This document shows, piece by piece, positions 5,453 through 43,153 of a stretch of 64,000 nucleotides of DNA (its first letter is position 1; every line of letters begins with the position of its first letter). The DNA comes from a phage. The translations under genes and the position numbers were made by a program. The notes below the pieces were generated by a model. The model ran no database searches, was not told the DNA's origin, and saw only the letters and a program-made list of their open reading frames with translations. The stretch lies in the NCBI GenBank assembly GCA_020241125.1, contig GCA_020241125.1_4708.1; one strand, given 5' to 3'.

Positions 5453-6691
5453 TTGAAATCCTTATTTACAAATAAAGGAAAGAAAATGTCTAATTACTAC
5501 GACCAAGCTATTCAAACCATTCAGGAGAATAATGCGTCGTTAACACCCGAAGCTGTGGAGGCAGCGGGCAATGCGGTGTTATTCACTGATTCGGATTGGG
5601 CAATAGCGCGGAAGAATATTCGTACCAGTGTCGGTCAAGGGACATACGAGGACAGTATCGCCAGACGGTATCGGAATGTGTCGCCTATTCCTGGTAACAG
5701 CCCGATCCCGATTAACCGCGATCATGCCGGTATTACCTTCTTCACACGACCTAATTTACATCTTACCGACGCGAACTTAAAACGAGATCGACGTTTGTGG
5801 TCGTTACGTACGGATAACCCTAACAGTATTCAGGCTGTTGTCCGTGACTACTTGGACCCTGTGGGTGCCAGAAAGCGGAACCATCGAGGACGTGCCATCG
5901 TCGATGAGCGCAATCCATTCATAAGTATACTGACGGACAACCTGACGGATATCAGCGGTTTCAATGACATGGAAATGCAGGTCTATCAGGGTAAACCGGG
6001 ATTACGCCAAGAAACCGTTGTGATGGCTGACGGTTCAGTGGATATGTTCCAGCCTTATAACCTGAACGCGACGTTCAAGAACATCATGGGTAACCCCATC
6101 ATGTTCCTTCATTATATTTGGTTGATTTACATCGCAGGCGTGCATAATGGTGAACTGACGCCAAGCCCTCAGGCCATCATCGACAATGAAATGGATTACT
6201 GGACAAGATGCTATCGTATCATCCTGGATCCGACTGGGATGTATGTTCGTTATATCTTCGCACCGACCGCGATGTTTCCTGTCGGGTTACCGATTGGTAA
6301 TATGGCTAACTACAGCATCGATAAACCCTTCACGCAAGATAACGAACGTATCACTATTCCATATCAGGCGGTTGGTAACAACGCGTTCGATGAGATTCTG
6401 AAGGATGAATTCAATCGACTTGTCCTGATGTTCTATTACGGTGAGAACGATACCCGTACGTTCCTTGAAGATGAGGAGCTGGTACCTATCTCACCCTACG
6501 AGCGTCGAATCATGTCGTATCGTGTCGATATGTATCCATTTATTCATCCGTTGACCTCAGAGCTTCTTTGGTTCGTACCCGCTGATGATTACAACGAATT
6601 CTATCTGGATCTTGAGCCGTCGGCGTTACCACCGGATACGTTCAGTCGCGATCTTGTCCGTACCACCATTCCGCAAAATTACGAGGGATAA
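5453..6691 (+). CDS. Hypothetical protein
   Basis: 412-aa ORF; likely true start at ATG 5486 (MSNYYDQ) preceded by AAAGGAAAG; followed 4 nt later by next gene. Confidence 0.55.
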   Translation: MKSLFTNKGKKMSNYYDQAIQTIQENNASLTPEAVEAAGNAVLFTDSDWAIARKNIRTSVGQGTYEDSIARRYRNVSPIPGNSPIPINRDHAGITFFTRPNLHLTDANLKRDRRLWSLRTDNPNSIQAVVRDYLDPVGARKRNHRGRAIVDERNPFISILTDNLTDISGFNDMEMQVYQGKPGLRQETVVMADGSVDMFQPYNLNATFKNIMGNPIMFLHYIWLIYIAGVHNGELTPSPQAIIDNEMDYWTRCYRIILDPTGMYVRYIFAPTAMFPVGLPIGNMANYSIDKPFTQDNERITIPYQAVGNNAFDEILKDEFNRLVLMFYYGENDTRTFLEDEELVPISPYERRIMSYRVDMYPFIHPLTSELLWFVPADDYNEFYLDLEPSALPPDTFSRDLVRTTIPQNYEG

Positions 6692-6694
6692 TAA

Positions 6695-9688
6695 ATGAGC
6701 GTAACCAACAAAGATCTTGCTGAACAGCTCAATCGCTATATGCTTTCACCTATTGAAATGCAGGCTGTTGCAAGCGATATGATCCGTTTGGCCTCTGATG
6801 GCGAGTTAACCCTGGTTGACCCCAGCTGTCCGTTTGTTTATCTGCTGGAGGTTGCAACGGCAACGGCTGCGAACCAGAACGCACGAGATGAGTCCCGTGT
6901 TCGCGAACTGTATCCGAAGCTTGCAACCAACTGGAGCCAGCTCTATCGTTGGATGTATGATGAGTCGTACGTCGGACGTTTCGCAATGCCGGGTAAAACG
7001 GAAATCATTTATTCGTTAGGGTATCAGGAAATCCTCGATCGCGCTGTAGAGATTCCCAACACCATCGCCTCCGATGATTTGAGCCGTTCTTACAGCCGTA
7101 AGTTAGTGATACCACGTACGACAGCGTTTACGGTAGCCGGAATGGATTTCGGGTTACATTATCCCATCGAAATCCAAGTACAAGCGCACGACCAGATCCG
7201 CGTCGTTTATAACACCGATAACATCAGCCCATTGCAAACCTTGGAGAGTAACCAAGTTGAGTACGGGGTCGTTCGTGTAAAAGCGGGTAAAGTGTTGGTG
7301 ATGCGTATCCCGCTGTTCCAGTTTAAAACGCTGGTAAAAGATGTGCCGTTTAACAGCGTTCACGGGATGAACAGCAGTATTACCTTCGAAGATCAGTTTT
7401 ACCATTGTCGTGCGTATATGTCGTCGGATAACGATACCTGGACGGAGATAGCGACAACGCACAGTCAACAGATCTACGATCCGTTAACACCAACCATCGC
7501 GTTACAAGTAGAAGGGAACAAACTTAACTGGCGTGTTCCTGAAATTTATTTGTCTCAAGGTACGATGGATAAAAGCACCATTCGACTTGAGGTGTTGACG
7601 ACGAAAGGGAAAATCAGCGTCGACCCGTCTGATTACGACGTGACCGACTGGAAAGATAATTACATCGATTTGTCACCAAAAGCCGAACAGAAATACAGTG
7701 CGCCGCTAAGTGCATTCAACATTAAAGGGATTTATAGCGAGGGGGCGTTGTCTGGTGGGCGATCCGCGTTAACGTTCGAGGAACAACGTGAACGCGTTAT
7801 GGCGGGAGTGAACAAAACCAAGGTACCAATCACAGGAACGCAGGTCGAGCTGGTGCTTCAAGATGCGGGTTATGGGATGGTGACCACCATCGACAACGTA
7901 ACCAATCGTTCGTTCCTGGCAACCCGAGATTTACCGCAATTGAGCGACAGCGTGCCGCAAGCCGGTTCGTTGATGGGGTCTTTCTATACGTCAGCTGCAG
8001 CATTGGTGAAAAGTAAGTTTGTCGCTGATAACGGCGACAGTATTACGATTAAACCTGATTGCTTGTATCGTGACAGTAACGGAAGTATCACGCTGTTGTC
8101 AGACGATGAAATTGACCGTATTAATGCAGGTGACTCTGATGCGAAGTTGAACGCGGTAAACAACGCCATGTTGTTCTACAGTCCGTTTCATTACGTATTA
8201 GATGCGACAAGCGATTTCGACATCCATGCTTATTACCTGGATGCCCCTAAGATCGGCACACAAGCCTTCCTCGACGCGAACGAGACAATCCCGTTAACCG
8301 CTATGGTGACCGGATACCGTCTGGATCGTATCGCCGAAGGATATCGTCTAAGCCTCATTGTAGAAGGTAACGACGCATGGAAAGCGCTCGACGATAAAAA
8401 CGTGCACATCCAGCTGGGGTTCAATCCGCGTGGTGAGGGTGATTACGCAACGATGTTAGCATCGCCTACAACCGATGAACAAGGTCGTCGTTTGTTCACT
8501 TTCGATATCACCACGAATTATGATTTTACGCGAATCCTGGCCGATGATTCCACGGCGTATGAACCATATATCGCATTGACTTCGTTCTCGATGTATGAAT
8601 CGACACCGCGGGATTATTGGGCATCACTGCAGCAGTATTTGGAAATATTCCATGTGGTGACGGATTACGCACCGGAAGATGTCGACGGTATTTTACACAG
8701 CGCTTCCGATAATTACCTGGTTAAGAAACTCACGCTTCAAAATGGGTATTGTTTCTACCGTGAACGTCTCACCGCAACCTTTGGTTATGATCTGGATGGT
8801 CTTTGGATGCGTTCTCGTACGGTAGCCTCGGAGATCACGTATAAACGTTACACCGAGAACATTCCGTGGGTGTATGATGAAGATATCCCAGCGACGGATG
8901 AGACCGGTTCTGTTATCATTGAGCAAGGCGATGATGGTACGTTGTCGGTTAAATATCTGCATCGTAAAGGAGATCCGAAATTAAACAGTGATGGAAGCCA
9001 AGCCTATCGTTACCTGAAAGGCGACATCATGAAAGATAATTACGGTAATCCGATCCCCGTCGATGAACGTGAGGTTCTGCGTAACCTGGACATGTTCTTT
9101 ATTGATGCGTCGTATCTGTTAGCGAACGATACAGACGTGATTGAGTACCGTAATGCGATTCCTACGCAGCTTATCGAATGGATCCAGAACGATATCGACA
9201 CGTTCAGGAATTTCTGTTATGAAGAAACAGAGATTTCACTGTATCCTAAGCAATCGCTGGGGTATGTGGATGTTATTGTGGAAAACGGATTGGAAACGAC
9301 GCTTCCTGCTGCCTTATCGTTCAACGTGACACTGTACTTACCAGCTAAGCAATACGCCGACCTGGATTTACGTCAAGTCCTTCAAGCGATGGTGTCGAAA
9401 GTCATCAATGAATGCTTGACATCCCGTACGGTGGCTAAAGCAGAAATGATCGCGATGATTCGTGAGGAGGGCGGTGACGACATCCTTAACGTTGAAATCG
9501 ATGATTTTGGACCAGGTAAGAACCTCAGTGTTTATACCGCGAAGAACGACGGTGTTCGTTGTGCGGTGAAGAAAGAGCTTTATGTGAAAGCGGATGGTAT
9601 CTTGTCCGTACGTGAAGCGATCGATGTAAGTTTTGTGAAACACGCACAAAGCAACAGTTCAGCGCTAGCGCAAGGCCTTCGTGTCTAA
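6695..9688 (+). CDS. Hypothetical large protein (997 aa)
   Basis: Long uninterrupted ORF; ends at convergent junction carrying palindromic hairpin 9710..9741. Confidence 0.6.
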   Translation: MSVTNKDLAEQLNRYMLSPIEMQAVASDMIRLASDGELTLVDPSCPFVYLLEVATATAANQNARDESRVRELYPKLATNWSQLYRWMYDESYVGRFAMPGKTEIIYSLGYQEILDRAVEIPNTIASDDLSRSYSRKLVIPRTTAFTVAGMDFGLHYPIEIQVQAHDQIRVVYNTDNISPLQTLESNQVEYGVVRVKAGKVLVMRIPLFQFKTLVKDVPFNSVHGMNSSITFEDQFYHCRAYMSSDNDTWTEIATTHSQQIYDPLTPTIALQVEGNKLNWRVPEIYLSQGTMDKSTIRLEVLTTKGKISVDPSDYDVTDWKDNYIDLSPKAEQKYSAPLSAFNIKGIYSEGALSGGRSALTFEEQRERVMAGVNKTKVPITGTQVELVLQDAGYGMVTTIDNVTNRSFLATRDLPQLSDSVPQAGSLMGSFYTSAAALVKSKFVADNGDSITIKPDCLYRDSNGSITLLSDDEIDRINAGDSDAKLNAVNNAMLFYSPFHYVLDATSDFDIHAYYLDAPKIGTQAFLDANETIPLTAMVTGYRLDRIAEGYRLSLIVEGNDAWKALDDKNVHIQLGFNPRGEGDYATMLASPTTDEQGRRLFTFDITTNYDFTRILADDSTAYEPYIALTSFSMYESTPRDYWASLQQYLEIFHVVTDYAPEDVDGILHSASDNYLVKKLTLQNGYCFYRERLTATFGYDLDGLWMRSRTVASEITYKRYTENIPWVYDEDIPATDETGSVIIEQGDDGTLSVKYLHRKGDPKLNSDGSQAYRYLKGDIMKDNYGNPIPVDEREVLRNLDMFFIDASYLLANDTDVIEYRNAIPTQLIEWIQNDIDTFRNFCYEETEISLYPKQSLGYVDVIVENGLETTLPAALSFNVTLYLPAKQYADLDLRQVLQAMVSKVINECLTSRTVAKAEMIAMIREEGGDDILNVEIDDFGPGKNLSVYTAKNDGVRCAVKKELYVKADGILSVREAIDVSFVKHAQSNSSALAQGLRV

Positions 9689-15867: not shown

Positions 15868-17178
15868 TTAGGCGATAATGGAGTCAAGAGTCGCTGCGGT
15901 TTTGAACAGATCGCTGTTCATTGTAGAAGAAAGGACTTGCTGAATTTCTTCCTGTTTAACCGCTTTACGAACCCCAGGACGAAGGATAAGCGTAACCATC
16001 TGTGAAAAGGTACGATTATTGTTCATCGCACTCAGCGTTTCATCGATTGTTTTGATGGCATCCAGCGTCATGGAACGAACATCGCTTGGGATATCACGAT
16101 CTTTCAAGCGTATAATTAAATCTTGTTTGATTTTACGGAATCGTTCCATGTCGTTATCGTAAATGCTGTATGTCGGATCTAACCAAACAGAAAGCGCGGT
16201 TACAGCGACAACAACCAACACGCCGATAGCACCAACAGAAGCTAAACCTATCGCCATCATAGAAGCTATAGTAGCATCCATGATGAAGGAGAGCCAGAAC
16301 ATCGTTTTGGACTTCACGGAGTCTTTGCTATAAAGCCGATACATTTTAGCAAGCCCGCTAACGAGATACTCCCCACCGCCATGACGCGTAGCGAACTGAT
16401 CAGCCATGAATTCGGAAGCAACGTCGGTATATCGTCCAGCGTTGTTTACGTTTCTTAACTGCATCGCTCTGTTAGACACGTAAACCGTGTACCAGACACT
16501 ACCGTCGTCTGAATCACTGATTTTGTCTACGTCGACGTTGGTATCCAACGTTTTGTTTAACGCTTTCGCCAGTTCGATACGTTTTACCTTATCGGTTGTC
16601 CCCAACAGTTCACGCTGTACGGTCATGATTGAGGCTTCGACACGAACCGTTTCCGACAATGTTTCAAGGAAGGTAAATGCGTGCCCGATTTCATGCAGCA
16701 TTATGGCTGCTTTTTCTTCCGGAAGAAAGGGTTCTGTCGCCGTTAGCAGTTCATACGTGATGGCAGAACGAATCTTCAATTCTTCAAAAATACCGTAAAC
16801 ACGACCTTTTTCTAAATCGACGTAACCGACAGGTGTATCTTTAATCTTCTTAAGGAGCGTAACACCATCAGCACCGCGCATCCATAACCGATGATAGTCT
16901 GCCAGGATTGTGTTGTTTGTCGAAATATCCGGCGGGTACACGTAGGCATTCATCCGGCCCATTTTCACGTCGACCGAGAATTCGATGTTCAACCCCGTAT
17001 AGCGTTTAACCATCTCGGTTAAACGACCGTCCTTGAAAACGTTTAAAACCTCTTTTTTATCCAGTCCCTGTTTGCTTCTGAAGAACTCGGTCATTTCCTT
17101 GAACAAGGAACCATCTTGAAACTTGATGGCCTCCATCGTTAATTCGTCATGACCATACACGCGTTGTAGTAATGACAT
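15868..17178 (-). CDS. M48-like zinc metallopeptidase with C-terminal hydrophobic segment
   Basis: HEIGH zincin motif (MLHEIGHAF) followed by EFMADQFA, matching the HExxH...ExxAD zinc-ligand arrangement of M48 (HtpX/Ste24-type) peptidases; long hydrophobic segment MFWLSFIMDATIASMMAIGLASVGAIGVLVVVAVTALSVWL. Confidence 0.6.
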   Translation of the reverse strand: MSLLQRVYGHDELTMEAIKFQDGSLFKEMTEFFRSKQGLDKKEVLNVFKDGRLTEMVKRYTGLNIEFSVDVKMGRMNAYVYPPDISTNNTILADYHRLWMRGADGVTLLKKIKDTPVGYVDLEKGRVYGIFEELKIRSAITYELLTATEPFLPEEKAAIMLHEIGHAFTFLETLSETVRVEASIMTVQRELLGTTDKVKRIELAKALNKTLDTNVDVDKISDSDDGSVWYTVYVSNRAMQLRNVNNAGRYTDVASEFMADQFATRHGGGEYLVSGLAKMYRLYSKDSVKSKTMFWLSFIMDATIASMMAIGLASVGAIGVLVVVAVTALSVWLDPTYSIYDNDMERFRKIKQDLIIRLKDRDIPSDVRSMTLDAIKTIDETLSAMNNNRTFSQMVTLILRPGVRKAVKQEEIQQVLSSTMNSDLFKTAATLDSIIA

Positions 17179-17399: not shown

Positions 17400-19151
17400 A
17401 TGAGCGAACAAGAACGAAAACCTAAGAAGAAACTGCTCGGTATTCAATGTCGACACATCAGCTATAACGAAGCGAACGATGGCAGCAAGAACGACCTCAT
17501 GATCGCAAAAGAGATCATGTTCTTCGATGATAATACGCAAGCGACGAACCTTCGCTTCTTCGAGAATTACAAACGTCCGTTTTGGGTGACGGTAGAGAGT
17601 AAACGTAAGAACAAATATAAAAAGGAAAGCGAGAAGCTCTCGCATGTGCGTCGCTACGATGTCCGCCAAAGCGAACTGGTTGAAAAGATCAGCTCGGTAC
17701 TTTATAAAAGACGTGCTGACGATAACACCCGTTTACAGCAGCTTGCACGGAGTCCATACCTCTATGGAACGGACGTTAGCGCCAGCTGTTATTTAAAAAC
17801 CCAGTACAACACAAAATGGCCGGAATACGTCGATAAATTACCCGCTTCCATTGCCTGTTTCGATATCGAAACCGACGTTGTCCACGGACACGGTAAGATC
17901 GTTTGTATGTCTATTACAATGGGATACAATGCGATACTTTGCTATACCAAGGACTTCGTTGGTCATATTCCGAATGCCATTGAGAAAACCCATGAGAAGA
18001 TTCGATATTACCTGGCCGAACGTCTGAATACCAAAGAAGATCCCCACGCATTCGAAAAATATCAGTACGATGTTCGAATCGTAGAAAGCCCGGCACAAGC
18101 GGTCATCCAATGCATGCAGAAGGTTCACGAATGGCAGCCGGATTATCTCCTTGGCTGGAATATCGCGTTCGATATTCCGCGCATGCTCCAGGCACTGAAC
18201 GAGGAAGGGTATCGTCCCGAGGATGTTTTCTCCGATCCCCGTATACCACCTAAATATCGTATTGCTCGCTGGGTACCACCGAAGACCGACAAGGTATCTG
18301 CTTCAGGTCGTAAAACCAACCTTACCCTTGAGCAAACCTGGCCGATGTTTTATACGATGGCTACGTATCAGGTTATGGATGCGATGTGTGGCTATAAGTT
18401 CGTTCGTTTAGGAAGACCGGATGAAGGACGCTATTCACTCGATGCGGTGTTAGAGCGAAATAAATGCCATACGAAATTAAAAGCTATTCCTGGTACAGAG
18501 GGGTTCACGGAGCTTGCCTGGCACGAAGAGATGCAAACGAACCATCAAATCGACTACGGCGTATATAACCTTTGGGATAACCAGGGTATTGAGGCGTTGG
18601 ACCAGAAAACAAAAGACTATTCGATGACCATCCCTATCCGTTTAGCGGCGTCGGATTTGAAAGATTTCAGTTCTAACCCTAAACGTATCTGCGATAAACT
18701 TTTCTTCGTTTATCTTAACCGTGGGGAAGTCATGGGATGTACCGCTGACGACATGACCCAGGAAGAAGATAAGTGGGTTATCTCACGAGCTGGACATATC
18801 GTCACATTACCATGCGATCTCATGGCTGACAACGGCATTCATCTCTTCTGGGATATGCCGAACCTGAGAAGTTATATCCGTCTATTCGTTGCAGACCTTG
18901 ACATTAGCAGTTCATACCCGAATGGGCAGATCCTGTTGAATCTATCCAGAGCGTGTGTTTTTCGCGAGCTCTCACGCATTGAGGGCGTCTCTGACTATCA
19001 ATTCAGGAAGTTAGGTATCAACTTTATTACCGGAGGTAAAACGAACGCTGTAGACTTCTGTAGAATCGTTTATAAAGCACCATCGATGTTTGAACTTTTA
19101 GAACATTTCGATGCAACGCGTCCAAAAGAGGAAGCGCGGACCATCGAATGA
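17400..19151 (+). CDS. Family-B DNA polymerase, N-terminal part (3'-5' exonuclease domain plus motif A); appears split or truncated
   Basis: Exo I-like FDIETD, Exo II-like GWNIAFDIP, possible Exo III YSLDAV, and pol motif A DLDISSSYPNG (DxxSLYPS-like); no motif B (KxxxNSxYG) or motif C (DTDS) before the stop; flanked by opposite-strand genes. Confidence 0.55.
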   Translation: MSEQERKPKKKLLGIQCRHISYNEANDGSKNDLMIAKEIMFFDDNTQATNLRFFENYKRPFWVTVESKRKNKYKKESEKLSHVRRYDVRQSELVEKISSVLYKRRADDNTRLQQLARSPYLYGTDVSASCYLKTQYNTKWPEYVDKLPASIACFDIETDVVHGHGKIVCMSITMGYNAILCYTKDFVGHIPNAIEKTHEKIRYYLAERLNTKEDPHAFEKYQYDVRIVESPAQAVIQCMQKVHEWQPDYLLGWNIAFDIPRMLQALNEEGYRPEDVFSDPRIPPKYRIARWVPPKTDKVSASGRKTNLTLEQTWPMFYTMATYQVMDAMCGYKFVRLGRPDEGRYSLDAVLERNKCHTKLKAIPGTEGFTELAWHEEMQTNHQIDYGVYNLWDNQGIEALDQKTKDYSMTIPIRLAASDLKDFSSNPKRICDKLFFVYLNRGEVMGCTADDMTQEEDKWVISRAGHIVTLPCDLMADNGIHLFWDMPNLRSYIRLFVADLDISSSYPNGQILLNLSRACVFRELSRIEGVSDYQFRKLGINFITGGKTNAVDFCRIVYKAPSMFELLEHFDATRPKEEARTIE

Positions 19152-19199
19152 TTCAAGTAGGTTGATCCTCGCTTAACAAAAAAGAAAACACATGCGAAG

Positions 19200-19231
19200 C
19201 CCCTCCCCCTGGCGGAAGCCGGAGGGAGGGG
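19200..19231. terminator. Palindromic hairpin (member 4) at convergent junction after the PolB fragment
   Basis: CCCCTCCCCCTGGC...GCCGGAGGGAGGGG imperfect inverted repeat. Confidence 0.5.
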
Positions 19232-19237
19232 TGAGGT

Positions 19238-19723
19238 TTATGCGCGTTCGTTACCAACCGTTACTTTGTAGTCAGCGTCGGTTAAGAAAATAGACAGGAA
19301 TCCATGTTCTTTGCAAATCTTACTAAGGATGTCAGCAATGATTTCGTTGATCATCGGCTTGTTTGCAAGGGCATAGATGTACCCGGGTGTAAAAGAAAGT
19401 GCGTGATTGATCATAGGCTCATGAGAAGCCAAGATAAGGATCACATGATGCTTCCCATCGTCGGTAACGACCGCTTGCGTAGACACGAAGAAATCAGTGA
19501 AGCAGCAGCGATCACAGGCTTTAGGTATATACAAGTCACCCAGAGCTTCGTCACGTGCTTTTACGTGTGTTTCAGGGGTGATGCTGCTAAGTTGATCTTC
19601 AGCGAGATCCAAGACATCCTCAATCGTTTTAAGAATAGCGTTGCGGAAATCCTCACGGTAGAATGGGATGATATCACGATCGTTCATGTAATCGCCGGAT
19701 TCGATAGTAAAGTTGATGTTCAT
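19238..19723 (-). CDS. Hypothetical small protein
   Basis: 161-aa ORF, first gene of a long same-strand array of small genes; AGGAG upstream of start. Confidence 0.5.
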   Translation of the reverse strand: MNINFTIESGDYMNDRDIIPFYREDFRNAILKTIEDVLDLAEDQLSSITPETHVKARDEALGDLYIPKACDRCCFTDFFVSTQAVVTDDGKHHVILILASHEPMINHALSFTPGYIYALANKPMINEIIADILSKICKEHGFLSIFLTDADYKVTVGNERA

Positions 19724-19793
19724 TGAATGCTCCTAGTGGTTATGTCGATTGATCGATGTATTGATTTATGTTTGAAGGTGTTGTTCACCTTCG

Positions 19794-20258
19794 TTAGATA
19801 TCGTCATCCGTGGTGCCGTAGGACATATGCTGAATTAATTTTCTCGGCTCGATGAAAATACGACATGTGATAAACACATCGGGATCGTATTGCTCCACGC
19901 AACGTCCGAAGGTTTGTTTTGCGGCTTGGCGCATCGATGTTATTTCCTGATCGTTCATCGCATTATCGAATTCGATGTTGATCGCGATTTTATCGGGAAA
20001 TAAATAGATAAAGTAATCGCCGCTGATACCACCATCATCAAAGTGACGTTCATTGTAGCACTGGACGAGCTTACCTTCACGTTCTTTCTGATACCACCCA
20101 AGGATACTATTAAGACCTCTGTCCACGCATTCGAATGCTTGAGTAATAACATCCTCAACGACGGATGCAGGCGTGGGACCATTGAATAGACGATCTAAGC
20201 GCTTTTTCATCGATTTGGTTTTCTCGTTCATGATTTCTTTTCCTGTTATAATCGGCAT
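19794..20258 (-). CDS. Hypothetical small protein
   Basis: 154-aa ORF in small-gene array. Confidence 0.5.
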   Translation of the reverse strand: MPIITGKEIMNEKTKSMKKRLDRLFNGPTPASVVEDVITQAFECVDRGLNSILGWYQKEREGKLVQCYNERHFDDGGISGDYFIYLFPDKIAINIEFDNAMNDQEITSMRQAAKQTFGRCVEQYDPDVFITCRIFIEPRKLIQHMSYGTTDDDI

Positions 20259-20262
20259 ACAA

Positions 20263-20293
20263 CCCTTCCCCGGCCTGATGGCTAGGGAAGGGG
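20263..20293 (-). terminator. Conserved palindromic hairpin (member 5)
   Basis: GCATAcaa-CCCTTCCC-N14-GGGAAGGG-gcTATGC. Confidence 0.55.
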
Positions 20294-20306
20294 CTATGCT
20301 ACGTTG

Positions 20307-20705
20307 TTATGCTTCGCAATCAGCTGAAGGCGTCGCGCCTTTCTTACCAGCGATACGCCAAATCCGACACGCTGGGTAATGGTTAACCTCTAGAGAGCAA
20401 GGAATGTTATATTTCTCTTCCAGCGCATAAAGACATTTCGTTAGCTGCTCCAGCGCGTTCTCGTCGTGTCGTAACGCGTGGTGGCCTAATCGATGTTGGT
20501 CGTTCTTTATATACGCCTCGAAGAGAACATGTTGGCGATGTACGCTGACGTTTACAGCCTCGAGTATAGCTTGGTCGAGCATACGACTAAAGCACATCAA
20601 CGAGTCAGATACGTTTTCTCGCTTAACCAGATCGATCATGGCGGGAATATACGAATGGTCGATGTTATCGATGACCGCTTTAGCGACGGAATCAGCAACG
20701 TTCAT
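20307..20705 (-). CDS. Hypothetical small protein, paralog A of tandem pair
   Basis: 132 aa; clear similarity to adjacent 20743..21138 product (shared VKAV-DNIDH, MID, EEKYNIP-SLEVN motifs). Confidence 0.6.
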   Translation of the reverse strand: MNVADSVAKAVIDNIDHSYIPAMIDLVKRENVSDSLMCFSRMLDQAILEAVNVSVHRQHVLFEAYIKNDQHRLGHHALRHDENALEQLTKCLYALEEKYNIPCSLEVNHYPACRIWRIAGKKGATPSADCEA

Positions 20706-20742
20706 CTTTTTTAATCCCTAGTTTGTTATTGATCACGTATAT

Positions 20743-21138
20743 TTACTCTTTGACGTCAGTTGTCGTTTCGACATGCTTCTCACTACTGACGTACCAGAGC
20801 AGGTACGCTGGGAAAAGATTGACCTCTAAGCTAAATGGGATATTGTATTTCTCTTCCATTTTACAGAGATGTTCTTTAAGTAAATTTCTCGCGTCTCTGT
20901 CACCACGAACAGAGTGCCAGTCTAGTTCTTTGTTCTCCTTTACCAGGACCTCTACGATGATACGTTGCTCGTGAACCTCGGTTTTCACAGTGAAAAGTAA
21001 ATCGCTGCTATCCAAACGGGTAAAACGAATGTATGAACCAGGTGTTTTTTCTTGTTTAATAATATCGATCATGGTAGAAATGCGCGGATGATCGATGTTG
21101 TCGTTAACAGCTTTAACGATGGATTCTACAATGCTCAT
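20743..21138 (-). CDS. Hypothetical small protein, paralog B of tandem pair
   Basis: 131 aa; paralogous to 20307..20705 product. Confidence 0.6.
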   Translation of the reverse strand: MSIVESIVKAVNDNIDHPRISTMIDIIKQEKTPGSYIRFTRLDSSDLLFTVKTEVHEQRIIVEVLVKENKELDWHSVRGDRDARNLLKEHLCKMEEKYNIPFSLEVNLFPAYLLWYVSSEKHVETTTDVKE

Positions 21139-21170
21139 TTTTTATCCTTAATGTTATCGATTTGGAAATA

Positions 21171-21938
21171 TTACTTATTTTTGCTTTCTTTATAGACAGT
21201 TGTTACCCACGATGGGAAAGCCGGATGGAAACAGAGCGTGAACGTAACTGTCGTATCGTATTTAAACGCACAGTTCACTAACCGGGTATCTAACGTTTTC
21301 CTTAATCCGTCATCATCGTTATCGATGATGGTCATATCTCTTAATATCCCAAGCACGTTAACGCCATCGGGTGTCTGGGTTACGACAAGTCGTCGTAATG
21401 GCCCGCATGTATAGTCACGTACAAATCCTTTCTTCGGGTCCGATACCCTGTTTAACGCATCGTGATTTTTGATGAATTCATCGGCGATACAATAGGTTTG
21501 TTCCCTTGCTTTATCGGGATCGTATTCTGCTAATAGTTCCTTCGTGTCGAATGTTATCGCGTTATTAGCATTCGATTCAGAAGGGAAACATAAAACTAAA
21601 CGAACAGGGTATTCATATTGATCTGTTCTCGTTTCGAAAGCATTAGCTAAACACGGCTTGTATGCCTTTGCGTCGACATTGTCCAAACACGGATGCAATA
21701 ATGCGTGAATAACGGCACCATCGTCAGTTAAACCGAATTCCAGAAATTGTGTTTCATCGACATCCGTGACGGTTTTCTGAAGATACGCTTTACCGTTAAC
21801 GATATCGGTATCCCACATATCGTCGTTTAACGATTCTTCAAACTTATCGAATATATGGTTTACGAAATTGATGAGTTCATCAATACGACACTGTTGGTTG
21901 AATTCGATTAATCGTTGAACTTTATCTCTGATAGACAT
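21171..21938 (-). CDS. Hypothetical acidic protein
   Basis: 255-aa ORF, Asp/Glu-rich. Confidence 0.5.
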   Translation of the reverse strand: MSIRDKVQRLIEFNQQCRIDELINFVNHIFDKFEESLNDDMWDTDIVNGKAYLQKTVTDVDETQFLEFGLTDDGAVIHALLHPCLDNVDAKAYKPCLANAFETRTDQYEYPVRLVLCFPSESNANNAITFDTKELLAEYDPDKAREQTYCIADEFIKNHDALNRVSDPKKGFVRDYTCGPLRRLVVTQTPDGVNVLGILRDMTIIDNDDDGLRKTLDTRLVNCAFKYDTTVTFTLCFHPAFPSWVTTVYKESKNK

Positions 21939-21940
21939 GA

Positions 21941-22405
21941 TTACTCCTTAGTTCCTTCTTCGTTGGACGTATATTCCACATAGTGGAATTCACGGCCGTC
22001 GATAAACTTGAGTGCTACTGTAATAGGGAAATCACACGGCATAGCGGATTTCGTAAATGCGTTATCAGCAACATCAGATAACCGACGTATGGTATTCTCC
22101 CCTTTTGCTATGAATGGGAATTTAATGTTAATAAGGATACGGTGTTTGTAAATAGTAAAGACGACAGTGCTGTCGAAATGTACCCCAGTTAAAGTCATTG
22201 TTGGGATACGTTTTACAACGGAGAAATGTGTCCCGTCAATATCGCTACTTCCCACTGACCATTCATCGGAATTGCGTAGACTTTTCTTGAGGATATCAAC
22301 GCTTTGCGTGACCACCTCAGCAACTTGTACGACGTACGTGTCTTTATGCATGTCGAAAAGTTCGTTGACGTTAGATTTGAATGAATAAACCGTTGCCATT
22401 ATCAT
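21941..22405 (-). CDS. Hypothetical small protein
   Basis: 154-aa ORF; 4-nt overlap with upstream gene. Confidence 0.5.
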   Translation of the reverse strand: MIMATVYSFKSNVNELFDMHKDTYVVQVAEVVTQSVDILKKSLRNSDEWSVGSSDIDGTHFSVVKRIPTMTLTGVHFDSTVVFTIYKHRILINIKFPFIAKGENTIRRLSDVADNAFTKSAMPCDFPITVALKFIDGREFHYVEYTSNEEGTKE

Positions 22406-22860
22406 ACCTCTTTTTTCATCTTCATCGGAACAGCGAGTGCAGCACTCGCTGTTCCATTATCCGGCTCATATTCCAATGTAACGAGATTGCAGCCGTCCGA
22501 TAATTCATAATCGATCGCTAGGGGGAACGAGATACCGTGCGACTTTATGCATTTACCAAATGTCTCGTTGGCTGTATACATTAGAAGTTGCTTTGCGGCA
22601 AGCCCGTTTACGCTGAAAGGTAATTGTGCTGTCGCAGCGATACGATTATTGTAAACTCTGATATCGGTGATATCTACAATCGTAGCATTGCCGTGTTGTG
22701 TTGATGGAACGGATAGGTTGTAGAAGTAAGGTTCGGAGTCGGAATCGGGCTCGTTAAATAATTCCCAGCACCCGTCCTCCTGCAATCTTACTTCGAGTAT
22801 TTCAAAGCTTTTAATTATCGATTCTACCAGCTGCTCACCGTAAGAATCCCATGTCGTCAT
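22402..22860 (-). CDS. Hypothetical small protein
   Basis: 152-aa ORF. Confidence 0.5.
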   Translation of the reverse strand: MTTWDSYGEQLVESIIKSFEILEVRLQEDGCWELFNEPDSDSEPYFYNLSVPSTQHGNATIVDITDIRVYNNRIAATAQLPFSVNGLAAKQLLMYTANETFGKCIKSHGISFPLAIDYELSDGCNLVTLEYEPDNGTASAALAVPMKMKKEV

Positions 22861-22931
22861 TTTTTAACACCTTCGACACCTTTTAACCGATACGTGTCCC
22901 ATCTAACAAGGGACACGATATCGTTGATTAA

Positions 22932-23432
22932 TTACTCTTCTGTGTTTTCATTGTCAGGATCGTAGTGGAATTCGAACAGCCCTGAACCGTCGTGTCCGTT
23001 GATTGTTAGTATAACGGGCATATCGAATCCTCGGACACGCGAATGAAAACATTGTGCTAATTTTAGTTTGGCGTATGCCGCTACTTCATTGACAGCAATA
23101 CACGATTCACCTGTTATACTCAGTATAACGTCGATACTAACAATGTTGTCGTGCAACGCAAAACGCCAGCGATCGATACGATTATTATCTTTATCGGTTG
23201 TCTCGTTTACGAGATAGACTTTATCGTCAACCGACAAAGCGGGACTCCAGCAACGATCGTTTATTAAATTCGCCTGGAGTTTTAGTATCGTCTGATCGAT
23301 AATATCCCAACACGTAACCAGCGTGGTGTCAGGCACTGAGTAGAGAAGGGCGTGCACTTTATCCTTTATTTTAAGTGCTTCCGCAGGACGTCCGCAAATA
23401 CCATGCATTTCGACTTTCTTATTCATATTCAC
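22932..23432 (-). CDS. Hypothetical small protein
   Basis: 166-aa ORF. Confidence 0.5.
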   Translation of the reverse strand: MNMNKKVEMHGICGRPAEALKIKDKVHALLYSVPDTTLVTCWDIIDQTILKLQANLINDRCWSPALSVDDKVYLVNETTDKDNNRIDRWRFALHDNIVSIDVILSITGESCIAVNEVAAYAKLKLAQCFHSRVRGFDMPVILTINGHDGSGLFEFHYDPDNENTEE

Positions 23433-40100: not shown

Positions 40101-40691
40101 ATCGGTACGGTCACGAATATCTGTTGCAACAACAGGCAACTGCTTACGAACATCATTAACTGCTTTAGGTGTCGCTGATTTTGTCTCATCGTCGCTATCG
40201 ATATCACTGCTCAGGATGGTCAGTCCTCGAGTATCTGTGGTTGCATCAGGAAGAAACGCGTTATCTAACACCTTAAGCTGTATCGCATCCGTGTTATTAA
40301 CAACAACATACACTTGACAGTTAAGAACGCTGGTTGCGCCTTCGGTAGGCACAGGCTTGTATCTTTCTGGTGCACTGCATACGGCGACCAGAACACCTTG
40401 ATTGTCATACAGACCGATCTCACGTACCCAGAACCCACCTTGACTGGCAGGAATAATACCCTCAACAATAATCCTGGTTGTGTCGTCAACATCAATACGG
40501 ATGTTGGAAACTTCCCCACGATAAACTTCGTGTACAAGTGCTGTTTGGCTAGCATCGGGGGTTGGTGTAGAACCGTTGCCATCACCAACGGCAAAATGCG
40601 TAATTCTTAGTTTCTCACCGTCAGGAAGTAATGCTGCGGTGATACGTTCAGCGCCTTTATCGGTAATGACCGTTTTATAAGTTGTACTCAT
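37134..40691 (-). CDS. Long tail fibre protein with C-terminal intramolecular chaperone (peptidase S74-like) domain
   Basis: 1185 aa; N-terminal region resembles phage tail-fibre N-termini (P2 gpH-like; LIDSSPEALNTLNELAQALGNDPNFATTVTNALAGKQP); about 6 tandem ~38-aa repeats (GGVSFDGSANIDLPGVN...ATATKLQTAR); C-terminus SSRRYKKDIENI...WYGLIAEEVGEIAPQYV...LVVPLIKQVQKL matches S74 chaperone domain pattern. Confidence 0.75.
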   Translation of the reverse strand: MSTTYKTVITDKGAERITAALLPDGEKLRITHFAVGDGNGSTPTPDASQTALVHEVYRGEVSNIRIDVDDTTRIIVEGIIPASQGGFWVREIGLYDNQGVLVAVCSAPERYKPVPTEGATSVLNCQVYVVVNNTDAIQLKVLDNAFLPDATTDTRGLTILSSDIDSDDETKSATPKAVNDVRKQLPVVATDIRDRTDGRVALPGMFGFGAILTDVKRFSGNAGTSEFLTWVRATTPGAYQVSQSSGNDKIIPGVVFNGLIEIKYISSSRNSSGPQYEEKGIFYFGVNGDFWYNRYHTTGDGYLVGWENLKVDVEALRRLIALKADLNNPVFTGIPAAPTAAENDSSQQIANTEFVMRAIASLIDSSPEALNTLNELAQALGNDPNFATTVTNALAGKQPLNALLTALSGLATSANKFPFFTGTDKVALAAITSTARALLSQSSIEGMQTTLGLSASLFRRFRGQLPTDANLDTYGPVEASVGIWSKQTSTNADAAHNFPEANAVGYIEVLPAGQFGGTQRYTVRTGNIYVRSLTASWNGVDGPWGEWLKVGNVAATAAKLATARTIGGVSFDGSANIDLPGVNKAGTQNTSGNAATATKLQTARKIGGVAFDGTADIALPGVNAAGNQNTTGNAATATKLRTAITIGGVSFDGSASINLPGVNATGNQSTSGNAGSATKLQTARTIGGVSFDGTANIDLPGVNKAGNQSTSGNAATATKLQTARRINGVAFDGTTDISFSINVLASKGRVTALANATQGSNTGIQMYEAYNNGYPTAYGNVVHLKGASSVGEGEILIGWSGTSGAHAPAYLRSRRDSTDAKWSEWAQIYTSKDSIPGVNTTGNQNTSGNAATATKLQTARTISGVAFDGSKNITLTAKNVGATACPTGWLITGDNNSSITTSSFITLLQNQGAFNTRAWVARCSFAAADSAYIPDSETKCGIIPLAGAVIEVVSFGMTNYTIRVTTATTSSVSGAKTNSEFIYSYDNYNGSTNSPGWRRCYNSKNYSVNLSDFVTENQLTGYNNNLDIIANTLVVRNGSNGGFAVWDISTTTSGANMYISPTAGINNVFRSTSSRRYKKDIENITDEQADKVLEMRPVWYRSTCEADNKDWGWYGLIAEEVGEIAPQYVHWRDATEEDDPAIVSSNGLVAEGVMYERLVVPLIKQVQKLTAKVEAMEEELKALKK
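38080..39060 (-). repeat. Intragenic tandem coding repeats (~114 bp units) within the tail fibre gene
   Basis: Repeated peptide unit visible in translation; DNA units diverged but periodic. Confidence 0.6.
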
Positions 40692-40697
40692 GGCGTT

Positions 40698-41225
40698 TTA
40701 TCCCGGGTAAATAGTGATGACATCACCGATGACAGTTGCCGCACCGGCGCAAAGATACGCTGGTGATGTATCACGCTGGTTTGTCACGATAAGATCCAAT
40801 TGCCCACGCCAAACCATGGAGGTATTCGCGATGGGAATCGAGATCTTCTTGGAAGTATCGTCACGAAAATTAATGGCGGTAGCAAGGGTAGCTGAATCAA
40901 AATCAACGTCGGGTTCAAAGTTGAAACCGTATTGATCCGAAATAGCTTGAATAACCGCTCTTATGGTTGTTGTTTCAACCGACTCCAAAACGATTTTTAT
41001 CGGTATTCCTAGAAATGCTTTCGCTATATCACGCCGTGTGTAAGTGATAAAACTTTCACCACACCACCTTGTTCCTTCATTTGCTGTGACGATCACTTTT
41101 GCCCTGTTAACACCAGAACTCCCATCCAGGGTTAAAGTGAGATCGGAGTTGCTGAATACACTACTGTTACGTTGGTTTATCAACGTAATAAGTTCGTCTT
41201 TCCATGGTGGGTAAAGTGAACGCAT
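40698..41225 (-). CDS. Short protein carrying only the shared receptor-binding-protein N-terminal anchor domain
   Basis: Start set at ATG 41225 (MRSLYPPWKDE) preceded by GGAGGAGGG; ORF-track start at 41408 would run through the upstream hairpin; product shares RRDIAKAFLGIPIKI...YGFNFEPDVDF with other RBP N-termini. Confidence 0.5.
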   Translation of the reverse strand: MRSLYPPWKDELITLINQRNSSVFSNSDLTLTLDGSSGVNRAKVIVTANEGTRWCGESFITYTRRDIAKAFLGIPIKIVLESVETTTIRAVIQAISDQYGFNFEPDVDFDSATLATAINFRDDTSKKISIPIANTSMVWRGQLDLIVTNQRDTSPAYLCAGAATVIGDVITIYPG

Positions 41226-41338
41226 AAGCGCACCCTCCTCCAACAATCGAATTAATATGCAAAAACGCCTCGAAACAGGAGTGCGATTCGAGGCTAACGT
41301 AAACAGTCTTAACGACCGCATAAAATTCCGCGCATATT

Positions 41339-41371
41339 GCCCCTCTATCCCGACAAAGCGAGATAGAGGGG
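41339..41371 (-). terminator. Palindromic hairpin (member 10)
   Basis: CATATTG-CCCCTCTATC-ccgacaaagcga-GATAGAGGGG. Confidence 0.5.
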
Positions 41372-41383
41372 AGGATAATACGA

Positions 41384-43153
41384 TTATGCTGCTACATATC
41401 CAGGCCAACGTTCTCTTGGCCAGTTTGTTGCGCCCTGTCCAACGTTGTCCTTACCAGAAATTACATTACTTACGTCCCAACCACTAAGATCCTGGTTAAA
41501 TGCGGTGTTGTTACGCATCATGAGGTCGATATTACGTAATGATTGGGTATTCCAGCCGGAAATGTCTTGGTTGAATGCCGTGTTGTAAGCAAACATGTTA
41601 ACAACGTTTTGTAATTTTGAAGTGTTCCAGCCGCTAATATCGCCATTGAACTGCATGCTCGAGAACATACTGCTAGCATCGATAAGACTATCTGTTTTCC
41701 AGTTAACCAGCTTGTTTTCATCAAGTGCGTTGCAACTACTGAACATGTAACTCATGTTGTTAACTTTGGATACATCCCATTTATCTAACCCGTTACCAAC
41801 GAACTCGTAACAAGCTTGGAACATCCAGCTCATGTCGGTAACCTGGCTCACATTCCATTTGCTAAAGTCGAGGTTGAGTTTTGCGCATCCGGAGAAAGTT
41901 TTATACATACTGGTGATACGACTAACATCCCATTCTTGAATGTTAGGATCATTAAGTATAGATAAGAATTGGAACAATCCGTCTAACGACGTCCATTTCT
42001 CTGGAATACGGTTTGGTACTGTACGGAGCGATGAAAGGTTATTGGTTGACGGAGAGCGGAACATACCGTTATCCCAATTTACGATTTCCGTAATGTTGTA
42101 CCCACGGATCGTTTGGCGTCCATTACCATTATACACAGACCCTGTTGCAGTTATTGTATATTCGTTTGTATCAGCATACGTATGTTCAGCCTGTGTAGGC
42201 CACTCACCTATTACATCCCTATTCCCATCACCCCAATCGATGGAAATATTTGTCCAACCATCAAGATCTAGGGTAACGGTCCCGCCATTGGTCTTCAGGA
42301 TGTATTTACCTGCATTGTCGGTATAATAACAAACGATCATCGCACCGTATAGGTTACCAATTTGCCAATCATCCTTTTCTGTTACCGCTATTTGCGCTGT
42401 ACCACGTTGTAAGAAAAGCACCGTACGGTTGTCGTCAGTCTGTAACGCGGTTAATGCTTGAGCTTTGTCGTCGCCGGTAATTTCACCAGCTTCCACTAAA
42501 GCATTTAACATTCTTTCAAAGTATTCGATGGGTAATTGGTGTCCTACAGACATGTCAACTGATGGAAGAATGAGATCATCTAATGCTGCGGCAGTTGCAA
42601 GGACTAATGATCCCTTGGTGGGGTCTGTTTCTTGGAGGTAACGTAGTCCCGTAATCTGGTATGCTTGAATGATTGTAATCAGATCCAGCGTATCGTTAAT
42701 GACCTGTATCTGTAAATGCCCAGACCAAACATAGCTGCTTTCAGCAATTGGTAATTCGACCGCCTGAATACCTGACGTTTCAAAGCTGATCTTTTTATTA
42801 AGATCGGTTTCCAGGAAATCAACCGCGAGATCGAAATTTATACCGTACTTTTCAGCGATGGAATCTACGATGTTTCTGAAAGCAACATCGGTACTTACGA
42901 TAAAACGTAACGGGATTCCTGCAAATGCATTAGAGATATCTCGACGAACATATGTGAGTGACTGCTCGAAGAAATACGGGCTGTTATCTCCAGGCTTGAT
43001 GGTTATCTGGCACACCTCAGGGTGTTCAGCTGGGATGAACGATTCGAATTTAACATCGGATTCTTTCAACGAAAGCTTGTTCTTCCGGTTTACCAACGCC
43101 AGAAGATCGGCTTTCCATCCAGGATAAACTGTAGACATAAGCACTCCAATCAT
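41384..43153 (-). CDS. Receptor-binding protein with DUF285/BspA-like repeats and shared N-terminal anchor
   Basis: 589 aa (start possibly at internal Met MSTVYPGW); N-terminal anchor homologous to other RBPs; C-terminal repeated units FxxxxAFNQDISGWNTxxLxNxxxMF typical of DUF285/BspA-type repeats. Confidence 0.6.
   Translation of the reverse strand: MIGVLMSTVYPGWKADLLALVNRKNKLSLKESDVKFESFIPAEHPEVCQITIKPGDNSPYFFEQSLTYVRRDISNAFAGIPLRFIVSTDVAFRNIVDSIAEKYGINFDLAVDFLETDLNKKISFETSGIQAVELPIAESSYVWSGHLQIQVINDTLDLITIIQAYQITGLRYLQETDPTKGSLVLATAAALDDLILPSVDMSVGHQLPIEYFERMLNALVEAGEITGDDKAQALTALQTDDNRTVLFLQRGTAQIAVTEKDDWQIGNLYGAMIVCYYTDNAGKYILKTNGGTVTLDLDGWTNISIDWGDGNRDVIGEWPTQAEHTYADTNEYTITATGSVYNGNGRQTIRGYNITEIVNWDNGMFRSPSTNNLSSLRTVPNRIPEKWTSLDGLFQFLSILNDPNIQEWDVSRITSMYKTFSGCAKLNLDFSKWNVSQVTDMSWMFQACYEFVGNGLDKWDVSKVNNMSYMFSSCNALDENKLVNWKTDSLIDASSMFSSMQFNGDISGWNTSKLQNVVNMFAYNTAFNQDISGWNTQSLRNIDLMMRNNTAFNQDLSGWDVSNVISGKDNVGQGATNWPRERWPGYVAA
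41416..41956 (-). repeat. DUF285/BspA-like coding repeats (~69 bp period)
   Basis: Repeated SGWN(T/V)S...N...MF units in translation; periodic DNA similarity. Confidence 0.5.

Follow-up and report, generated by a model that had tools for sequence, protein, structure and literature searches.

How can a gene for a family-B DNA polymerase end shortly after polymerase motif A, and where is the remainder of the enzyme encoded? These questions are raised by a 583 amino acid (aa) open reading frame (ORF) in a stretch of phage DNA of 64,000 nucleotides (GenBank assembly GCA_020241125.1, contig GCA_020241125.1_4708.1), the whole of which is referred to here as the window. The ORF runs from an ATG start to a TGA stop at positions 17400–19151 of the forward strand. 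A preliminary description of the locus had noted exonuclease motifs and motif A in its product, and proposed that the palm and thumb half of the enzyme is encoded elsewhere. Here we report evidence that the ORF very probably specifies one chain of the two-subunit, replicative family-B polymerase found in a Goslar-like chimallivirus, that is, of a nucleus-forming jumbo phage.

Motifs and fold of the window protein

The catalytic carboxylates of Exo I (DxE), Exo II (Nx2-3FD) and Exo III (Yx3D) are all found in the window protein, in that order. Exo I is FDIETD (aa 154–159, positions 17859–17876 of the forward strand, with D155 and E157), and Exo II is GWNIAFDIP (aa 252–260, 18153–18179, forward, with N254 and D258), which aligns with WNVESFDIP of RB69 when the family profile is compared with PDB. 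Exo III, YNLWD (aa 389–393, 18564–18578, forward, with Y389 and D393), has the RB69 counterpart YNIIDV and was absent from the motif list of the preliminary description. Polymerase motif A follows as DLDISSSYPNG (aa 499–509, 18894–18926, forward) and matches the DxxSLYPS pattern in the form D501-ISSS-Y506-P507-N. In an alignment of 40 homologues, with identities of 33–66%, the residues D155, E157, N254, D258, Y389, D393, D499, D501, Y506, P507 and N514 are all invariant, as is W253 of Exo II. Conservation of the catalytic residues to this degree shows that the Exo and motif A matches are not due to chance, and the three motifs named in the preliminary description (Exo I, Exo II and motif A) are accordingly confirmed.

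Beyond motif A lies a C-terminal tail (aa 515–583, 18942–19148, forward) that has no RB69 counterpart. Conservation of the tail is moderate (E523 and N549 are invariant), and it is predicted to be helical, with low confidence when modelled alone. The ORF stops 74 aa after the end of motif A and 85 aa after its start, somewhat sooner than the 100 or so residues first estimated. When all six frames of the window were scanned with regular expressions for DTDS and KxxxN[ST]x[YF]G, neither pattern was seen, in the ORF or elsewhere, in agreement with the earlier view that motifs B and C are missing from this gene.

Profile and structure comparisons lead to the same family. The match to PHROG 3011 (“DNA polymerase”) is end to end (E = 8e-178, covering profile positions 5–570 of 576), whilst the Pfam DNA_pol_B_exo1 profile (PF03104) gives 16 bits, under its cut-off of 23. 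A profile search of PDB with the 40-sequence alignment identified RB69 gp43 (E = 7e-7) in three colinear stretches. The third of these sets the family consensus vaDLDvsssYPn..NIskET against RB69 residues 404–430 (VMSFDLTSLYPSIIRQVNISPET) and so equates D501 with RB69 D411 and Y506 with RB69 Y416; P507 is aligned with RB69 P417. The AlphaFold2 model of the window protein has a mean predicted local distance difference test (pLDDT) score of 84, being confident across aa 1–450 and poor across aa 460–583, as would be expected of a palm fragment without its partner; the tail appears in the model as four short helices. When this model was compared with PDB using Foldseek, the top 50 matches were all family-B polymerases (best E = 5.5e-12, over ~450 aligned columns), those of RB69 and T4, Pol epsilon and E. 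coli Pol II being among the top matches. Taken together, the motif, profile and fold evidence identifies the product as the N-terminal domain, 3'-5' exonuclease and first palm segment (with motif A) of a family-B polymerase, followed by the C-terminal tail, and not as an unrelated exonuclease. The concern, voiced in the preliminary description, that the motif matches might be spurious is thus laid to rest, with PHROG 3011, the RB69 profile and Foldseek all in agreement.

Relatives and distribution

The window polymerase gene is 96% identical at the nucleotide level to its counterpart in Escherichia phage vB_EcoM_Goslar (NC_048170.1), a chimallivirus with a genome of 237 kb. The start of the ORF at 17400 lines up with position 79690 in Goslar and, judged by synteny, the window spans roughly 62–128 kb of the Goslar genome. 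The identical 583-aa protein is encoded on at least 24 public contigs and the exact protein occurs on contigs of more than 200 kb, up to 244 kb, in eleven collection blocks. No match was found in complete E. coli genomes or PLSDB plasmids. Both the exact window protein and a 499-aa Goslar form (discussed below) have been deposited many times in assemblies of Salmonella enterica and E. coli isolates, where the contigs measure ~236–245 kb, which suggests that enterobacterial isolates often bring jumbo phages of the Goslar type along with them.

More distant relatives are readily found by tblastn: phiKZ gp82 shares 39% identity and the SPN3US homologue 29%, over 95–96% of the length, and 201phi2-1 gp144 is likewise recovered. 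Judged by sequence similarity, phiKZ gp82 and 201phi2-1 gp144 are homologues of the window protein, and SPN3US gp44 is apparently another. In all, 210 homologues were collected, the best 120 of which span 457–703 aa. One homologue of the exonuclease-bearing subunit (P0364, 699 aa) has an additional N-terminal DUF4326 domain (E = 6e-14).

The partner subunit

The motifs that are lacking in the window protein are present on a separate protein in Goslar. This is gp244, the second Goslar protein annotated as “DNA polymerase” (717 aa; 174314–176467, reverse strand), the gene for which is located two genes from the nuclear-shell gene and ~95 kb from the exonuclease-half gene, on the opposite strand. 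gp244 matches Pfam PF20286 “Divergent Family B DNA polymerase” (divDNApol; E = 2e-204) and PHROG 2927, and carries motif B as KLDNNSLSG at aa 152 (K152 and N156) and motif C as SDTDS at aa 404 (D405 and D407). Across 40 gp244 homologues the residues R122, K126, K152, N156, G160, S404-D-T-D-S408, K484 and Y486 are invariant. The N-terminus of gp244 is conserved too, with F5 invariant.

Alignment of the gp244 profile with RB69 gp43 reveals three regions of correspondence: RB69 residues 438–505, placing R122 and K126 on RB69 R482 and K486; residues 553–570, which comprise motif B; and residues 706–755, which take in the KxY motif and the beginning of the thumb. The profile also aligns with Pol delta and poxvirus polymerases, from ~25 residues past their motif A. 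In the AlphaFold2 model of gp244 the pLDDT is 89, and the RB69 and T4 polymerases come first in the structure search. No invariant acidic residue is found among the homologues in the region corresponding to gp244 aa 1–121, indicating that the partner itself lacks motif A.

These results bear out the proposal that the palm and thumb half is encoded elsewhere. As for the search for an ORF with motifs B and C, suggested in the preliminary description, this drew a blank in the 64-kb window and succeeded in the relative Goslar, where the PF20286 partner accompanies a gene with 96% nucleotide identity to that in the window. The possibility that motifs B and C lie hidden in diverged form within the window ORF can be set aside; in Goslar both are on the separate PF20286 protein. 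Comparison of gp244 with the window by tblastn yielded chance matches only (E ≥ 0.23); this, and the absence of motifs B and C, place the partner gene outside the window. A further Goslar protein annotated as a polymerase, gp039, was considered as the partner and rejected, having no Pfam match, a match to PHROG 2943 instead and no DTDS; it is probably an RNA polymerase subunit.

The corresponding pair in phiKZ comprises gp82 and the product of a gene at 40599–42767. A preprint names the PF20286-type gene of phiKZ gp50, and treats gp50 and gp82 as DNA polymerase (bioRxiv 10.1101/2024.03.24.586471). More broadly, the exonuclease half is found in 291 phage records and the PF20286 half in 308. In the eight largest genera, and in Escherichia, the two halves are equal in number (Pseudomonas 81, Erwinia 62, Salmonella 24, Vibrio 23, Serratia 21, Aeromonas 20, Klebsiella 16, Ralstonia 13 and Escherichia 4).

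On Goslar-like contigs, a small gene encoding an SH3DP protein (PF20287) lies directly upstream of the PF20286 polymerase gene (L010/L011 3290–3703), a neighbourhood already reported by Iyer et al. 2021 (PMC7824862). The SH3DP protein could be a third subunit.

The split point and the absence of fused forms

In RB69 coordinates, homology to the exonuclease half stops at ~430 and homology to the partner starts at ~438. By these alignments the break maps to the loop after the motif-A helix, in the first palm segment, at about RB69 431–437, supplying the break point that the preliminary description had hoped to locate on this polymerase. A break at this position would mean that the catalytic site is built from two polypeptides. 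Both halves carry lineage-specific extensions where they part, a tail of ~70 aa on the exonuclease half and a head of ~80 aa on the partner.

No fused form is present among the 210 homologues of the exonuclease half or among 112 homologues of the partner (687–796 aa). An exhaustive hidden Markov model search of 1.8 billion representative sequences returned 607 matches at E ≤ 1e-30, and the best 150 of the 607 are 450–700 aa in length, with one exception, the protein P0234 (894 aa). This was considered as a candidate fusion and rejected: it owes its size to an acidic helical C-terminal extension of ~330 residues, in which there are neither motifs B and C nor Pfam matches.

Might the two halves have been parted by a mobile element? 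No intein or Hint match is seen in either half using Pfam (E ≤ 1), nothing in the window attains the gathering score of an Rfam family, and no homing endonuclease gene is located at either end of the window polymerase gene. The preliminary description had asked about an intein, intron or homing endonuclease at the junction in relatives. There is none at the split itself; there is, however, an intron with an HNH endonuclease gene in relatives at motif A, inside the exonuclease half.

A probable two-chain polymerase and its alternatives

The case for a split polymerase is built directly on which domains each half contains, how strictly the catalytic residues are kept, the lack of any fusion and the tendency of the two genes to occur together, and from these we infer how the enzyme might be assembled. 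The exonuclease-bearing chain would contribute the N-terminal domain, an intact proofreading exonuclease (Exo I–III) and the first palm strand and helix with motif A, the last of these providing the metal ligand D501 and the steric-gate residue Y506. The PF20286 chain would contribute the remainder of the palm, the fingers (R122, K126 and, from motif B, K152 and N156), motif C (D405 and D407), the KxY motif and the thumb. The two would form a non-covalent heterodimer, the tail of the window protein docking on the ~80-aa head of the partner, and the low confidence of aa 460–583 when modelled alone is in keeping with a segment that needs its partner in order to fold. The metal-binding carboxylates of motifs A and C would thus come from different chains and neither protein would be expected to polymerise DNA alone. 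The location of motif A on the “exonuclease” subunit matters for anyone seeking to express or engineer a chimallivirus replicase, as both proteins would be needed.

Several points weigh against this picture. The partner gene lies outside the window, so that its presence in this particular genome rests on relatives, and the association of the subunits and their composite active site are predictions from sequence and single-chain models. The HMMER stretches by which the break is placed on RB69 each score poorly (1.4 and 4.7 bits). The partner alone is modelled at a pLDDT of 89 and could be a stable protein by itself. Finally, Iyer et al. 2021 regard the PF20286 protein as the polymerase and the exonuclease-half protein as a stand-alone exonuclease that “might associate” with it (PMC7824862). 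On that account the window protein would be a proofreading exonuclease working beside a self-sufficient gp244-type polymerase and its motif A would be vestigial and non-catalytic. In keeping with this, the same authors call the PF20286 proteins polymerases without a fused exonuclease, the latter being “encoded elsewhere” (PMC7824862), and the partner folds confidently alone in AlphaFold2. A vestigial motif would not, however, be expected to retain D499, D501, Y506, P507 and N514 in 40 out of 40 homologues, as strictly as the exonuclease residues are retained, and the partner offers no invariant acidic residue upstream of the fingers to stand in for the motif A aspartate. In addition, the group I introns of relatives target exactly motif A, and introns of this kind favour functionally constrained sites (PMC12908238). 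We therefore consider a stand-alone exonuclease unlikely and favour a two-subunit polymerase.

Whether two such subunits might nevertheless be joined, as one polypeptide or one mRNA, is a separate question. Joining via a split intein would have a precedent in the split-intein PolB of Nanoarchaeum, and the frequency of group I introns in the exonuclease-half gene family might be taken to favour trans-splicing of a split group I intron; recoding is a third conceivable route. Against all of these stand the lack of Pfam intein or Hint matches in either half, a window-protein tail that is predicted to be helical and is not intein-like, a partner that begins with its own conserved N-terminus (invariant F5), the absence from the window of any Rfam family at gathering score and the placement of the Goslar genes ~95 kb apart on opposite strands, and we judge joining to be very improbable. 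Least probable of all is that a formerly full-length polymerase gene has decayed into a truncated pseudogene, or that its truncation arose in the assembly. The missing motifs B and C would be explained in this way, but hundreds of homologues and PHROG 3011 share the length and ends of the ORF, at least 24 independent contigs encode the identical protein, and the differences from Goslar are overwhelmingly synonymous (82 nucleotide changes versus 3 aa changes). Conservation of this kind effectively refutes decay or misassembly and leaves it with next to no probability.

Comparison with other split polymerases

The split arrangement is not new, since a “split subunit DNA polymerase” has been described in phiKZ-related phages, with SPN3US gp18 and gp44 named as the subunits (PMC5105663, PMC5694885), and is credited, as cited in those two papers, to work on phage OBP by Cornelissen et al. 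2012. The phiKZ-type pairs are phiKZ gp82 and gp50, SPN3US gp18 and gp44, and 201phi2-1 gp144 and gp083. These have in common with the window protein the family, the protein size and the motif content and, as judged from Goslar, the PF20286 partner and the distance between the two genes, and there is no substantial difference to report: the window gene is the orthologue in a Goslar-like coliphage. The finding is thus correct but ordinary for chimalliviruses; it confirms a published feature of phiKZ-like phages, the nucleus-forming jumbo phages that all have the two-piece enzyme, and has little discovery value. Iyer et al. 2021 (PMC7824862) make no mention of motif A going with the exonuclease, whereas the present analysis puts it there, and this placement of motif A on the exonuclease-bearing half, read from the alignments, is the sole detail that we add to the published description.

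Compared with the single-chain polymerases of RB69 and T4 (gp43), the window protein has the same order of Exo I, II and III and motif A, the same N-terminal and exonuclease fold (Foldseek E = 5e-12) and a NISxET helix. Unlike gp43, the window chain diverges ~12–20 residues past motif A into its lineage-specific tail of ~70 aa, with the fingers, motif B, motif C and thumb being found on a separate protein. The PF20286 partner also differs from gp43 in that motif B is separated from motif C by a large helical insertion, 250 residues replacing the ~60 of RB69 and T4.

Archaea also offer examples of PolB encoded by two genes, namely Nanoarchaeum equitans, which has a split intein, and Methanothermobacter, with PolB1 and PolB2. 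The archaeal splits are nearer motif C. In contrast to the Nanoarchaeum enzyme, neither chimallivirus half has an intein signature.

A further precedent comes from the T4-related Aeromonas phages 25 and 44RR, in which gp43 is split into gp43A and gp43B (Petrov et al. 2010, as summarised in PMC2988022). According to the same summary, the phage 25 proteins co-purify and are active together (PMC2988022), making this a two-polypeptide phage family-B replicase like that proposed here and a precedent for non-covalent reconstitution. As summarised there, the gp43A and gp43B genes are adjacent, separated by an untranslated spacer or by a seg endonuclease gene, and the split is recent. The chimallivirus halves, by contrast, are encoded tens of kilobases apart, with a split that is fixed across the virus family and no mobile element at the break.

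Group I introns at motif A

Although the window ORF is continuous, its Goslar counterpart is interrupted. Between codons D499 and L500, the Goslar gene contains an insertion of 1762 nucleotides (81187–82948; L001 7498–9259) that gives a full-length match to the Rfam Intron_gpI family, at 44.7 bits (E = 1.3e-9) against a gathering score of 50, and that carries gp069, a protein with HNH_3 and NUMOD1 domains. The last base of the 5' exon is U, and that of the insert is G. When the exons are joined, with an expected ligated junction of GTTGCGGAT/CTCGATATA, the product has 583 aa and is identical to the window protein at all but 3 of them. It is because the insertion follows codon D499 that Goslar gp068 is annotated as just 499 aa. 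The Goslar reference annotation is wrong in this respect, as both the intron and exon 2 (L001 9260–9517) are unannotated. The window gene is the intron-less allele and, from junction alignment, splice reconstruction and the Goslar Rfam match, the empty intron site lies between positions 18896 and 18897 of the forward strand.

Around this site the two alleles are unusually different. A dense tract (18860–18953, forward) contains 30 nucleotide differences from the Goslar intron allele, within ~60 nucleotides either side of the site, compared with ~1 difference per 30 nucleotides (~3%) elsewhere. All of the differences in the tract are synonymous and they include switches between serine codon families. 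Eleven out of 11 other intron-less copies (L007 and L017–L026) match the window tract with 0–2 differences per 124 nucleotides, one of them doing so despite 59 differences from the window across the whole gene, whilst the Goslar tract differs at 28–30 of the 124 positions. The tract looks like the result either of co-conversion of exon flanks during intron acquisition or of divergence of the endonuclease target. Both forms of the gene are represented among Goslar-like contigs: within a single 90%-identity cluster, the 583-aa and 499-aa forms are represented by 7 proteins each among the 15 members listed.

Intron insertion at motif A appears to extend beyond Goslar. Distant relatives have sub-threshold group I intron matches (27–38 bits in Rfam) at or next to motif A, at three points: after D499, with an HNH ORF (L016, ~5465–7898); after D501, without an ORF (L014, ~5477–5897); and inside codon Y506, again without an ORF (L015, ~5480–5831). 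Of the best 120 homologues, ~20 end at motif A, at 457–510 aa. In L015, a free-standing HNH_3 gene is located past exon 2 (6081–7043, reverse strand) and is followed by a second, partial copy of exon 2 (7114–7296, forward strand), which could be a duplication left by insertion of the endonuclease gene.

Group I introns with HNH nicking endonucleases are known in phage DNA polymerase genes, examples being I-HmuI of SPO1 and SP82 and I-BasI of Bastille, and the endonuclease gp210 is encoded by an intron in an RNA polymerase gene of PhiPA3 (PMC12908238, PMC11620839). The Goslar allele shares with these an HNH/NUMOD1 ORF, insertion into an active-site motif and apparent co-conversion of the flanks. 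It differs from them in that the intron is unannotated and is located in the exonuclease-bearing half of a chimallivirus split family-B polymerase, for which the window provides an intron-less counterpart.

Putting these observations together, we offer a set of four proposals, although that all four should prove right together is doubtful. Mobile group I introns may be contesting the motif-A stretch of this gene in chimalliviruses, with at least three insertion points within eight codons in different relatives. By analogy with what has been shown for the PhiPA3 RNA polymerase intron, Goslar gp069 would attack the essential polymerase gene of intron-less co-infecting relatives, the phage of the window among them. 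The 26–30 synonymous differences around the site would decide whether the window allele is sensitive or immune. Lastly, the replicase active site would be a true two-chain composite, a feature missed when the protein is described as a mere exonuclease. Since Goslar-like phages of E. coli and Salmonella include alleles with and without the intron, they provide a natural and tractable system for studying competition by intron endonucleases at a DNA polymerase gene, and in this sense the motif-A polymorphism is a useful, if modest, by-product of the analysis.

The gene neighbourhood

The preliminary description had placed the next genes on the strand opposite to that of the polymerase gene, and this holds on both sides, the flanking genes at 15868–17178 and 19238–19723 both being on the reverse strand. 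A scan for sigma-70 promoters and intrinsic terminators around the polymerase gene found nothing beyond shuffled expectation. In the 86-nucleotide gap between the convergent genes there is a GC-rich hairpin (19199–19232), also kept in Goslar, with a 14-bp stem containing one internal mismatch, a GGAA loop and a predicted free energy of -30.1 kcal/mol. This hairpin is probably a bidirectional terminator, though the simple terminator scan made no call there.

On the 3' side of the polymerase gene, positions 19238–23432 of the reverse strand are taken up by a series of small genes encoding proteins of 130–255 aa. Paralogue pairs are present among these, such as the products of the genes at 20307–20705 and 20743–21138, which are 38% identical. 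A segment of ~1.6 kb (20316–21950) has no Goslar counterpart and another (22406–22954) has no detectable nucleotide match to Goslar. The region 19238–23432, and 20316–21950 especially, appears to be variable.

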